From the NCBI RefSeq assembly GCF_002514735.1, contig NZ_KZ300476.1:599872-663871 (forward strand): a DNA stretch of 64,000 bases, read 5' to 3'. The position numbers and the translations under genes are program-made. Positions within the stretch are counted from its first letter, which is position 1, and every line of letters starts with the position of its first letter. Below the pieces are notes generated by a model that saw only the letters and a program-made list of their open reading frames with translations, had not been told where the DNA came from and did not search any database. Positions 14,766 to 50,525 of the stretch are shown here, one piece after another. Source of the DNA: Sediminicola luteus. GTDB lineage: Bacteria; Bacteroidota; Bacteroidia; Flavobacteriales; Flavobacteriaceae.

Positions 14766-14810
14766 GGAAATACGCATTTTGAGAAAACTTTAAAAAATCA
14801 TCGGTAAATT

Positions 14811-14972
14811 AGAGACTGTTTTGAAATGTGTGATTGGAATTTTTACAGGTTATTTTTGATGCCTTATAAGGCAAAATTTTTAAGCATAGCAGGGTTACGG
14901 TTTAAAATTTTTACGAAATAGGGCGCAAAAAGAAGCATAAAAAAACAATTGACATATTTCAAAACAGTCTCT
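14811..14972. repeat. MITE-like element, family 1, copy A (162 bp, 17-bp perfect terminal inverted repeats, no ORF)
   Basis: Left end 'agagactgttttgaaat' and right end 'atttcaaaacagtctct' are exact reverse complements. The internal sequence matches copy B at 36649..36850, including 'tttaagcatagcag.gttacggt' and 'aaaaaacaattgacatatttcaaaacagtctct'. Flanked by the direct repeat GGTAAAT (14803-14809 and 14975-14981). Confidence 0.8.
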
Positions 14973-14985
14973 AGGGTAAATCCAT

Positions 14986-36018: not shown

Positions 36019-36648
36019 ATGGGTTTATTGGAAAATCTACAATGGCGCTATGCCACTAAAAAATTCGACAACACTAAAAAAGTCTCTGAAGACGATATCA
36101 CTTTTCTAAAAAAAGCCATATCGCTGGCGGCCACCTCATACGGACTCGAAGCCTACGAGGTACTTATTATTGAAAACCAAGACATCAAAGACCGATTAAA
36201 AGATGCTTCTTGGGGACAGGCCCAAGTAAGTGATGCTTCGCATGTTTTTGTGTTTTGCAACAATACCAAAATATCGAACGAATTGATCGACGCCTATATG
36301 GATCGTAAATCAAATGACCAGGGCATTGCCAAGGAAAACCTTCAGGGTTATGGCGATTTTATGAAAAACACCTTGTTGGCCCTACCCGAAGACGAGGCGG
36401 CCCACTGGACGCGGCGCCAAACCTATATTGCCGGCGGCAACCTTATGGTGGCCTGTGCCGAACTTCAAATTGACTCCTGCCCCATGGAAGGCTTTGAAGC
36501 CGAAAAATACAATGAAATCCTCGAGTTGGACAAAGATGGCCTTAACGCATGTTTGGTAGTCCCAGTAGGGTATCGTTCTGAAGAAGACAACAACCAGCAT
36601 TTGCCCAAAACCAGAAAGTCGTTAGACCAAATGTTCCGTCACCTTTAA
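36019..36648 (+). CDS. Nitroreductase-family protein (NAD(P)H-dependent, NfsB-like)
   Basis: N-terminal 'RYATKKFD' FMN-binding motif of the nitroreductase family. ~209 aa. Confidence 0.75.
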   Translation: MGLLENLQWRYATKKFDNTKKVSEDDITFLKKAISLAATSYGLEAYEVLIIENQDIKDRLKDASWGQAQVSDASHVFVFCNNTKISNELIDAYMDRKSNDQGIAKENLQGYGDFMKNTLLALPEDEAAHWTRRQTYIAGGNLMVACAELQIDSCPMEGFEAEKYNEILELDKDGLNACLVVPVGYRSEEDNNQHLPKTRKSLDQMFRHL

Positions 36649-36850
36649 GAGACTGTTTTGAAATGTGTGATTGGAATTGTTTATAGGTCATTTTTCCTGC
36701 CTGTCGGCAGGCAGGGATGCCCTAGGAGGCAAAATTTTTAAGCATAGCAGCGTTACGGTCAAAAATTTTAACGAAATAGGGCGCAAACCTGCCAGCCGGC
36801 AGGCGGGAAGAAGTGTAAAAAAACAATTGACATATTTCAAAACAGTCTCT
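36649..36850. repeat. MITE-like element, family 1, copy B (202 bp) with two GC-rich palindromic insertions
   Basis: Begins immediately after the TAA stop (36646-36648) of the nitroreductase gene. Ends are 'agagactgttttgaaatgtgtgattggaat' and 'aaaaaaacaattgacatatttcaaaacagtctct'. Relative to copy A it carries extra hairpins 'cctgcctgtcggcaggcagg' and 'cctgccagccggcaggcgg'. Confidence 0.8.
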
Positions 36851-36913
36851 AAGGGCTAAATTTCTTGCAAGTAGTAATTGGAATACCGACCTTTAAGGGG
36901 TAATACCCAACGG

Positions 36914-37558: not shown

Positions 37559-37669
37559 TCTCGCGTAATCAACTTTTCGCACCCTTTAGTACATGAAAAA
37601 TCCAGACAGGATAGCTATTGACTACCCCATCTGGATTCACCATCTATGGAACACTGTGTGTGTCTATTT

Positions 37670-37832
37670 ATACCATTTCAATTTTGAGATTCAACCAATA
37701 AAAAAGCAGGGATTTTTTCTTTGGGCGAAAAAGAAAATTTAAGCATAGCCAAAGCTACGGTTCTATTTTATTTTGATGACCAAAGGTAAAAAGAACCATT
37801 TTTTATGTGGTATTTCAATGTTGAAATGGTAT
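37670..37832. repeat. MITE-like element, family 2, copy A (~162 bp, 12-bp terminal inverted repeats)
   Basis: 'ataccatttcaa' at the left end and 'ttgaaatggtat' at the right end. About 95% identical to 49281..49442. Its right terminus overlaps the stop codon (37832-37834) of the adjacent minus-strand gene. Confidence 0.8.
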
Positions 37833-38899
37833 TATCTATTAAAGGCGGGCCAATTTTGGTTGACCACCGATTCTGCATCCAACAGGCTTAACACTTCATC
37901 CGCAATATTCTCACTCAGTTCTAAATGCGTAGTAAAACCAACACAAGAAGCATTGATCTCGCCCAATACATATTTATCTTCACCGGTTTTCTTATCGGTA
38001 TCCAAGATAAAATCTGCGGTCCAGATCAAAGGCAGGTCGTAATTGCCCAACCTGCGCTGCATCATGGGCAGGGTGTTTTCGATTACCGCTACCAATTCGG
38101 GCCATTGGTCTGGCTTGTCGTAGCGGTATTTGGCACCTGAGAACAAGGTAGCGGAAAAAGCATCCGGCGTATCAGCAGGTTTTTTATGCACTACATTTAC
38201 CGCCTGATCGCGCAACATCAACACACGAATCTCTCCTTCCTTGATCCTCTCCAAAAAAGGCATATCCAACAGCATGCCGTTTTCCCCCTCCAAATATTGG
38301 ATACAGAACTCCAAGAACTCCTGAAGGGTCTTCTCTTCGGTATGGTTATCACGTGCTTCGGTCAGCTTTAATTTCGCCGTAAGCGGAATCGTCTTTTTGT
38401 ACTTGTCGGCATCGATTACCTCTACACGCCAAATACCTTCGCCTGTAGAACCTCGGTTTTGCTTAAGAACGCGAACCCCTTTTAGTAAGCTTTTTGGAAA
38501 ATTCTCTTTAAGGGCATCAAAATCATAATAGGTATACACATCTTCGGGTACCATATCGGTACCTTTTAGACGCTCTACCGAATTCTTGGCACCATAGGCC
38601 ACCATGGCATCTGGGTGTGGTAGCCCCTCTACCCCATTGTTAACCAATTCGCGAAGCATTTGGAAATAACCTACCTCATTGGGCAAGTTACCCGGATTTA
38701 CTCTACTGATATACGCATCGGCCTTGTTTTGCGTATGCCTATAAATTTCACCGCGATGTGCATCGTCATAAAAAACGATCTCGGCAGACCAGCCTCTCTT
38801 GTTCAACGATTCAATAATGGGTTTGGAGTCTCTGCGGTATCCATACTTCCCTTTGTCGGAACCTCCGCGAGCCTCAAAGATAACAACGTGTTTCTTCAT
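37832..38899 (-). CDS. Hypothetical protein, possibly an ATP-grasp-like fold
   Basis: 355-aa ORF. Segments 'VLKQNRGSTGEGIWRV' and 'YVLGEINASCVGFT' are reminiscent of ATP-grasp nucleotide-binding loops. No confident assignment. Confidence 0.35.
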   Translation of the reverse strand: MKKHVVIFEARGGSDKGKYGYRRDSKPIIESLNKRGWSAEIVFYDDAHRGEIYRHTQNKADAYISRVNPGNLPNEVGYFQMLRELVNNGVEGLPHPDAMVAYGAKNSVERLKGTDMVPEDVYTYYDFDALKENFPKSLLKGVRVLKQNRGSTGEGIWRVEVIDADKYKKTIPLTAKLKLTEARDNHTEEKTLQEFLEFCIQYLEGENGMLLDMPFLERIKEGEIRVLMLRDQAVNVVHKKPADTPDAFSATLFSGAKYRYDKPDQWPELVAVIENTLPMMQRRLGNYDLPLIWTADFILDTDKKTGEDKYVLGEINASCVGFTTHLELSENIADEVLSLLDAESVVNQNWPAFNR

Positions 38900-49165: not shown

Positions 49166-49280
49166 GAGGTACAAGCTGCGAAGTTGGAAGTACGAATTAC
49201 GAAATACCATTGCTCCTTTGGAAACCGGCATTTTAGCTTAATCCAAGATTACAACACTTCGTTTCTCCGGACTACGACTT

Positions 49281-49442
49281 ATACCATTTCAATTTTGAGA
49301 TACAACCAATAAAAAAGCAGGAATTTTTTCTTTGGGCGAAAAAGAAAATCTAAGCATAGCCAAAGCTACGGTTCTATTTTATTTTGATGGCCAAAGGTAA
49401 AAAGAACCATTTTTTAGGTGGTATTTCAATGTTGAAATGGTA
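49281..49442. repeat. MITE-like element, family 2, copy B
   Basis: Same TIRs as copy A ('ataccatttcaa' / 'ttgaaatggtat'). Its right terminus again overlaps the stop codon (49443-49445) of the adjacent minus-strand gene. Confidence 0.8.
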
Positions 49443-50525
49443 TTATTTTACATCTATACGATGCTCTATTATCTGTAGGGCACTTACGTTTTCATAATTG
49501 CGTTTTACAAAATCCAGGGCCAGCTCCATAATCTCGCCCATGTTTTGCGAACGCTTGAATTTCACATCGGAAGTAAGCTCGTAAATCTCTTTGCCCAATC
49601 TTTCGATATGTTCTGGCAAGGAGATTTCGTCTTCTTTACAGATTTTGATGAGTTTTGCGATACGCTTTTCATAACTCATGATCCTTTTGGCCACAATAGA
49701 CCGTTCTTCCAATTTGTATTGGTCTACCGAATGCTTTTGAAGCTTTCCTTGCACCAATTGCACCATTTTCAGGTTCTCTTTAAAAAACTGTGGCCGATAG
49801 ACCTTCAGCTTGCCTTCAAAACATTGCTGATCAAAATCAATCGCCCGTATCTTATATACCACATGATCAAAATCGTGGGTAGGTACTATTACATAATTAT
49901 ACGAACGCATATCACCCAAAAGTCGAATCATGGCCCGTTCGTTGAACTTTACGAATTCTTTGGCCAACTGGGCCTTTTCAGACTCAGAACATTTGGGTAG
50001 CATATTCTTAATGAACTCATCGCCAGGTATACCCGCAATATGCTCTTCAATCAAGGTGTCTTTATACACCAAAAAGTTCAGGTTATAAGGCGATAACATA
50101 TGCTCCAATTCCAGCCCATATACCCGTGAAGCATCTGTTTTCTTTACGTAAAAATAGGTATAGTTATCATTAAGTATGTTTCGTACCTTAATGCGAAAAG
50201 GCTTGGAGTTACCAAAAGTACAGTAGTCAACAGCATCTACGTTCAGGTATTGGATAATCTCTTCCCCACCATTGGAATGCAAGATAGAATACACCTTTTT
50301 TAGACTAAGATCGATCTCTTCCCGTTCAAATTCAGAATAGTACACACGAATCCAGAGGGTATCTTCCCCTTCATCGTCATACACGGTAATGGCCCCTGCA
50401 AAACGCAATAGATCTTCATAGAATACCGGAATTTCGATTTTTCTGTTGTAATGCTCTAAATAATCATCAAGCTTAGCATTGACCGGAAAAGCCGGCTTTT
50501 TCTTGGACATTAACTTCTCTCCCAT
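49443..50525 (-). CDS. Hypothetical protein
   Basis: 360-aa ORF with coding-like composition. No recognised domain. Confidence 0.4.
   Translation of the reverse strand: MGEKLMSKKKPAFPVNAKLDDYLEHYNRKIEIPVFYEDLLRFAGAITVYDDEGEDTLWIRVYYSEFEREEIDLSLKKVYSILHSNGGEEIIQYLNVDAVDYCTFGNSKPFRIKVRNILNDNYTYFYVKKTDASRVYGLELEHMLSPYNLNFLVYKDTLIEEHIAGIPGDEFIKNMLPKCSESEKAQLAKEFVKFNERAMIRLLGDMRSYNYVIVPTHDFDHVVYKIRAIDFDQQCFEGKLKVYRPQFFKENLKMVQLVQGKLQKHSVDQYKLEERSIVAKRIMSYEKRIAKLIKICKEDEISLPEHIERLGKEIYELTSDVKFKRSQNMGEIMELALDFVKRNYENVSALQIIEHRIDVK

Follow-up and report, generated by a model that had tools for sequence, protein, structure and literature searches.

Two probable MITE insertions at TAA stop codons of Sediminicola luteus and a conserved central hairpin with strand-biased folding

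Two copies of a short repeat in Sediminicola luteus end exactly at the TAA stop codon of an unrelated minus-strand gene, and the question raised by this locus was whether such a repeat supplies the stop codon, is directed to it, or carries only the footprint of a transposon. The window, that is the whole stretch of 64,000 nucleotides that was analysed (positions 599,872 to 663,871 of contig NZ_KZ300476.1), was subjected to a repeat search, by which a two-copy family of 168 nt with 97% identity was recovered at 37668-37835 and 49279-49446. The original prediction, in which both copies had been flagged as a MITE-like mobile element, was borne out by terminal inverted repeats, by the duplication described below and by dispersed copies. 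The high identity given there (~95%) was measured at 97% (156/161 positions of the element proper, 161 bp), and its inverted ends were recovered with an exact repeat of 11 bp instead of 12 bp, the twelfth pair being the inner base of the flanking TTA. Both copies have the layout TTA / TACCATTTCAA / 139 bp / TTGAAATGGTA / TTA (Table 1), in which the terminal inverted repeat TACCATTTCAA / TTGAAATGGTA is perfect over 11 bp and continues imperfectly along the whole remaining element. The exact 11-mer end was found only at the four element ends in the window, and with at most one mismatch it had 12 window matches versus 2.4 expected by chance. The 161-bp element is non-coding, with stops in all six frames and in-element open frames shorter than 35 aa. 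Both copies lie between convergent genes, and the TTA to their left and the overlap of their right end with the TAA stop of an unrelated minus-strand gene were found as predicted; the gene beside copy 2 encodes a conserved flavobacterial hypothetical protein. Rfam 15 gave no relevant match, either for the whole window at the gathering threshold or for the element and seven related loci at permissive E-values.

Table 1. Predicted features of the 161-bp element (copies 1 and 2) and of the related family-1 elements in the window
Feature	Position	Strand	Remark
Left target-site duplication TTA, copy 1	37668..37670	.	Single triplet at the L048 empty site
MITE copy 1, 161 bp	37671..37831	+	Core-sense strand is +; no coding capacity
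Left TIR TACCATTTCAA, copy 1	37671..37681	+	
22-nt core AAGCATAGCCAAAGCTACGGTT, apical hairpin, copy 1	37741..37762	+	
Right TIR TTGAAATGGTA, copy 1	37821..37831	+	
Right duplication TTA, copy 1	37832..37834	-	TAA stop of DUF6815/Cj0069-family gene 37832..38899 (355 aa)
Left target-site duplication TTA, copy 2	49279..49281	.	L052 empty site
MITE copy 2, 161 bp	49282..49442	+	TIRs 49282-49292 and 49432-49442; core 49352-49373
Right duplication TTA, copy 2	49443..49445	-	TAA stop of gene 49443..50525 (360 aa)
Family-1 copy B	36646..36852	+	TAA 36646-48, element GAGACTG...CAGTCTC 36649-36849, duplicated TAA 36850-52
Family-1 copy A	14812..14971	+	Flanks TTA and TAG; on no stop codon

For the comparison of filled and empty sites, the contigs encoding the closest homologues of both neighbour proteins (99% protein identity) were used, and at the DNA level the neighbour genes in these relatives had 93% and 90% identity with the window. 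At the site of copy 2, L052 reads ...GAT GTA AAA TAA GTCGTAGTCC (in summary form AAA-TAA-GTCGTAG) with no insertion, and the window reads, in gene orientation, GAT GTA AAA TAA, the element (TACCATTTC...GAAATGGTA) and TAA GTCGTAGTCC. At the site of copy 1, L048 has the same gene order as the window and reads AAT AGA TAG AAAAGACACACAGTGTTCCATAGATGG (also given as AAAAGACACACAGTG), again with no insertion, and the window reads AAT AGA TAA, the 161-bp element and TAA ATAGACACACACAGTGTTCCATAGATGG (also given as ATAGACACACACAGTG); in short, AGA-TAG-AAAAGACAC in the relative stands against AGA-TAA-element-TAA-ATAGACAC in the window. A third empty site was found in L048 for the related family-1 copy B, with CAC CTT TAA GGGCTAAATTTC in the relative versus CAC CTT TAA, the element and TAA GGGCTAAATTTC in the window. 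A single TAA or TAG was thus present at all three empty sites (L048, L052), against TAA-element-TAA in the window. In more distant relatives (L049-L051 and L053) the element was absent and a TAA or TAG stop was located at the same codon, and the homologues, with lengths of 355 and ~360 aa, were nearly all equal in length to the window proteins.

Since the empty sites carry a single stop triplet, the stop was present before the insertion, and the flanking triplets are a 3-bp target-site duplication of the pre-existing stop codon, a mode of insertion by which the stop is preserved. The claim that the terminus of the element donates the stop codon of the neighbouring gene was contradicted by the same sites, which already have a stop (TAA in L052, TAG in L048) with homologues of equal length. 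The conserved right end ggtaTTAt is accordingly the element end GGTA followed by the duplicated host triplet. A 2-bp TA duplication in the style of IS630/Tc1, which predicts an empty site TAA-TA-TAA, was rejected because L052 has a single TAA, and an element carrying both TAAs without any duplication was rejected because one stop triplet is retained at the empty sites.

Copy B belongs to family 1, a related MITE family with two copies in the window and ends of the type GAGACTGTTTTG...CAAAACAGTCTC. The TAA to its left (36646-48) is the stop of a nitroreductase gene (36019..36648), and a central core, AAGCATAGC-loop-TACGGT (the 22-nt core, at 36740-36760 in copy B), is common to family 1 and family 2, the latter being the family of the 161-bp element. 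Of the four MITEs with the core in the window, three are therefore on TAA stops with a TAA duplication. As separate observations, copy B has two additional 20-nt G+C-rich hairpins, CCTGCCTGTCGGCAGGCAGG and CCTGCCAGCCGGCAGGCGGG, at 36696-36715 and 36788-36807, which are symmetrical about the core and absent from copy A and from the rest of the window, and which could be nested mini-insertions or an extension of the stem. In copy A the flanking triplets are unequal and the motif GGTAAAT is repeated directly outside both ends (14803-14809 and 14975-14981), which may point to another kind of duplication, or to a secondary one, at the site 14803-14811 / 14972-14981.

The two copies of the 161-bp element are very probably recent insertions of a non-autonomous DNA transposon (MITE) at the genes' own TAA stops, with the triplet duplicated and the protein unchanged. 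The features on which this assignment rests are the terminal inverted repeats, the duplication in filled versus empty sites, the small non-coding size and the dispersed copies (the window, 12 genome loci and ~25 metagenome loci). In the proposed mechanism, a transposase encoded elsewhere in the genome, outside the window, would recognise the inverted ends TACCATTTCAA, and a 3-nt staggered cut would be made at a T-A/T-A trinucleotide, after which gap repair would duplicate the triplet. In both cases the target triplet would have been the gene's own TAA stop codon, so that the gene-proximal TAA copy would still end translation at the original codon, the protein would be unchanged and the insertion would be tolerated. 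From the TWA duplication we infer a transposase of IS5-family or PIF/Harbinger-like type; near-neutrality of the insertions in the window, and any role of the transcribed hairpin, are likewise inferred. When ~400 kb were searched for IS-sized pairs of terminal inverted repeats with equal TWA flanks, neither an autonomous partner nor a transposase with ends of this kind was found, a Pfam scan of 78 neighbouring ORFs gave no transposase among the matches listed (25 of 109), and no multi-copy ORF was found by an all-against-all ORF comparison. One candidate for an autonomous element (L044 24-1247) proved to be a MITE together with an LRR-protein gene and a solo end.

A 3-bp duplication of TNA/TWA type is shared by PIF/Harbinger elements and by the IS5-family groups IS1031 and ISL2; here the duplicated triplet was TAA or TTA in nearly every copy and TAG in one. 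In the IS1031 and ISL2 groups (ISfinder family table) 3-bp TNA duplications are accompanied by ends starting with GA or GAG. The family-1 ends (GAGACTG...) and the TAA duplications match this pattern, but the family-2 ends start with TACC instead of GA, and an IS5-type transposase with matching ends was not found in the ~400 kb examined. Neisseria Correia elements and enterobacterial ERIC/IRU are transcribed together with their neighbours into long RNA hairpins, and effects of these on the processing and stability of mRNA have been reported; they resemble the present family as MITEs of 100-160 bp with short TA-containing duplications, and their RNA hairpins parallel the strand-biased fold described below. 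They differ from it in sequence, in host phylum and in duplicating TA instead of TWA. IS groups of the IS1031/ISL2 type are abundant in Bacteroidota (PMC3196728). Among PIF/Harbinger elements, the rice MITE mPing has a 3-bp TAA/TTA target-site duplication (PMC2836001), and Tourist-type MITEs such as mPing share with the window element short size, non-coding sequence, terminal inverted repeats, the TAA/TTA duplication and a location in AT-rich gene-proximal DNA. They are, however, eukaryotic, have different ends and need two proteins, whereas here the host is a flavobacterium, the centre is conserved across the phylum and the ends are variable. REP/REPIN sequences (RAYT-mobilised) are likewise intergenic palindromic repeats that are often located just 3' of stop codons, but they are 20-40 nt, G+C-rich, marked by a GTAG/CGTC tag and free of target duplication (PMC3733652), and an AT-rich element of 161 bp with a 3-bp duplication falls outside them. 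Integron attC sites, REP/REPIN and retrons were ruled out by size, composition, duplication and gene context.

Outside the window, an exact search with the 22-nt core, made in a single genome for each species, gave 12 loci, hosted by Saprospiraceae, Bacteroidales, Kordia, Tamlana, Lutibacter, Cerina and other Bacteroidota, and the core was identical in Saprospiraceae, Bacteroidales and Flavobacteriaceae. The core-bearing elements in these genomes were ~160 bp with the same layout, mostly with TACCA...TGGTA ends and TAA/TTA flanks, and their outer arms differed in sequence. A metagenome search with both window ends placed 125-155 nt apart gave 35 loci, ~25 of which were real elements in unrelated contexts; their ends were identical to those of the window, their interior was mostly different, their flanks were nearly all TAA or TTA, and they included 57-bp mini-versions and tandem arrays with one common TAA. 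The element had no match in a plasmid collection or in viral contigs. These elements are a MITE superfamily distributed across Bacteroidota, in which TWA is duplicated, the ends vary, the central hairpin is invariant and the folding is biased towards one strand. A full-text literature search with the core and terminal repeat sequences and for Bacteroidota or flavobacterial MITEs returned no description of this family and, beyond that, a catalogue in which Bacteroidota MITEs are listed in bulk (PMC11602168). As further observations, a coreless subfamily (L015, L019, L021, L022, L027, L045 and L047) has the very same TACCATTTCAAC ends and occurs as tandem arrays with one common TAA and as 57-bp mini-versions; it is found in AT-rich hosts with genes for eukaryote-like LRR proteins (L044 200-1216). 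At L006 3228-3387 the element fills essentially the whole spacer, with a TGA stop 0 nt away and an opposite-strand ATG 2 nt away.

Target preference was estimated from 37 elements with TACCA-type ends, taken from other genomes, metagenomes and the window. Their flanks were almost always TAA or TTA, with one TAG/TAG pair, so that the predicted insertion at TTA/TAA sites was confirmed in this sample. The left and right triplets were equal in 28/37 (P=0.001 versus 50%) and unequal in the other 9 (for example TAA...TTA), and the reconstructed target logo was TAA alone in an AT-rich context. The null for stop codons was derived from the window, in which 54 ORF-based genes, 38 of them TAA-ending, and 342 intergenic TAA/TTA sites outside elements give ~10% of insertions on a TAA stop, under the assumption that only insertions sparing coding sequence survive. 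Five of the 37 TACCA-type elements were on a stop codon (P=0.31 under this 10% null), with the duplicated triplet being the stop of an ORF of more than 350 codons in each, and 3/35 remained when the two flagged copies were left out (P=0.69). The core-bearing copies gave 3/4 on a stop in the window (P=0.004) and 4/12 among those with clear duplications (P=0.026), or 2/10 (P=0.26) without the two flagged copies. It was concluded that TAA specificity together with the survival of harmless insertions accounts for the stop-codon pattern, and the suggested targeting of stop codons as such was not upheld, 5/37 standing against ~10% expected. Insertions at stop codons are frequent because TAA is the target, because TAA ends ~70% of the genes of this genome and because coding and promoter insertions are purged by selection. 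These figures leave room for a modest additional bias towards gene 3' ends, whether in insertion or in the retention of copies.

Two other accounts of how the copies came to lie at stop codons were weighed against insertion at a TAA target. Insertion might be directed actively to stop codons or gene 3' ends, either by the transposase itself or by a factor of the host (the terminating ribosome, for instance, or the transcription complex); this agrees with the 3/4 core-bearing window copies on TAA stops (P=0.004), with one of the two copies in L002 being on a stop, and with members in L003, L006 and L010 that adjoin a stop within ±1 nt (the ends of these three are different and their duplications unclear). 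Such targeting is nevertheless quite unlikely, given that the rates without the flagged copies (3/35 TACCA-type and 2/10 core-bearing) fit the 10% null, that the target logo is TAA in an AT-rich context and nothing more, and that many copies are located in promoter regions or in tandem arrays re-using the TAA of an earlier copy. The element could also be the relic of a single-strand DNA transposon of the palindrome-associated IS200/IS605 type, inserted 3' of a TAA without duplication and carrying its own terminal TAA. The strand asymmetry of the fold agrees with such a relic, and the filled site can formally be read as a target TAA followed by an element ending in TAA. An element of that type, however, shows no duplication and a fixed orientation 3' of a one-strand target, and here the core-oriented flanks were TAA in some copies and TTA in others, so that the target strand and the element strand stand in no fixed relation; one element has TAG on both sides, by which the flank is seen to vary and to be copied; and the ends are true terminal inverted repeats instead of dissimilar subterminal hairpins. 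This reading is extremely improbable.

The MITE reading accounts for the junctions, and the interior of the element raises a further question. The whole element is predicted to fold as one long hairpin (z-scores of -5.9 and -6.7 versus shuffled sequence for the two copies), with the 22-nt core, invariant across orders, as its tip, and the arms vary with compensating changes (49 pairs by RNAalifold, 36 with double changes). The core-sense strand was 4.5-25 kcal/mol more stable than its complement in 15/16 core-bearing members, with 3-9 G·U pairs versus 0-4, and it was favoured in 16/16 when the variable outer arms were folded alone; in the coreless subfamily, used as a control, the difference between the strands had no consistent sign. 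Two Kordia species share an orthologous insertion site and TTA duplication (L004 6604-6762 and L009 3911-4069), at which identity is 96% over the central 109 nt, 81-85% in the flanks and 64-72% in the outer arms, with the differences in the arms being largely compensatory. The strand-biased G·U pairing is unaccounted for by double-strand DNA transposition alone. The predicted folds suggest that only one strand is constrained, the simplest candidate being a transcript. A conserved centre with strand-specific structure thus exceeds what defines a plain MITE, and it may reflect selection at the level of RNA.

Such selection would fit an exapted RNA element, in which the MITE is transcribed in the mRNAs of its neighbours and either the ~75-bp hairpin or the apical hairpin, which is flanked by A- and U-tracts, serves to terminate the transcript or to stabilise its 3' end, so that copies are kept at gene 3' ends by selection. 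This reading is compatible with the MITE origin and adds a host-level function to it. The strand bias of the folds with its absence from the coreless control, the identity of the core across Saprospiraceae, Bacteroidales and Flavobacteriaceae, and the excess of central conservation at the Kordia site all agree with it, as do the position of both window copies between convergent genes and the fact that the sole terminator-like site in the region is the core, on the minus strand. That site is, however, a weak match to the consensus with a stem of 6 pairs (3 of them G-C, and one either G·U or A·C), the full hairpin is not followed by a canonical U-tract, and orientation relative to the neighbouring genes is mixed, many copies being flanked by a divergent gene pair or lying antisense to the genes on both sides. 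Relatives at 90-93% identity are, moreover, without the element at all three sites, and alternative causes are available, since homogenisation between copies could give the central conservation and quasi-palindrome template switching the compensatory changes of the arms. A host-level role of this kind at gene 3' ends, which the original prediction had offered as a selected 3'-UTR function, is possible but rather unlikely. A wider form of the idea, which we put forward tentatively and regard as rather unlikely, is a phylum-wide mobile RNA-hairpin module. Purifying selection would act on its ~110-nt centre, tipped by the invariant hairpin of 22 nt, as an RNA of one strand; copies at gene ends would be kept because they terminate transcripts, stabilise mRNA or serve as sites of processing, and the evolution of the outer arms would follow that of different transposases or proceed by compensatory change.

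The repeat that seemed to carry the stops of two unrelated genes is thus an ordinary transposon footprint and not a donated stop codon: TAA is the target and the duplication preserves it, so that this transposon can land on a stop codon without harm to the gene. Annotators are thereby kept from reading such junctions as gene fusions or as donated stops, and the family is a candidate for testing the co-option of bacterial MITEs as RNA elements. At the locus of copy 1, L048 (1443-1835) differs from the window (37559-37667) also by ~120 bp of additional unrelated intergenic DNA between the DUF6815 and DUF218 genes, inside which a 60-aa ORF was called, and the DUF6815-DUF218 spacer is variable beyond the MITE insertion.
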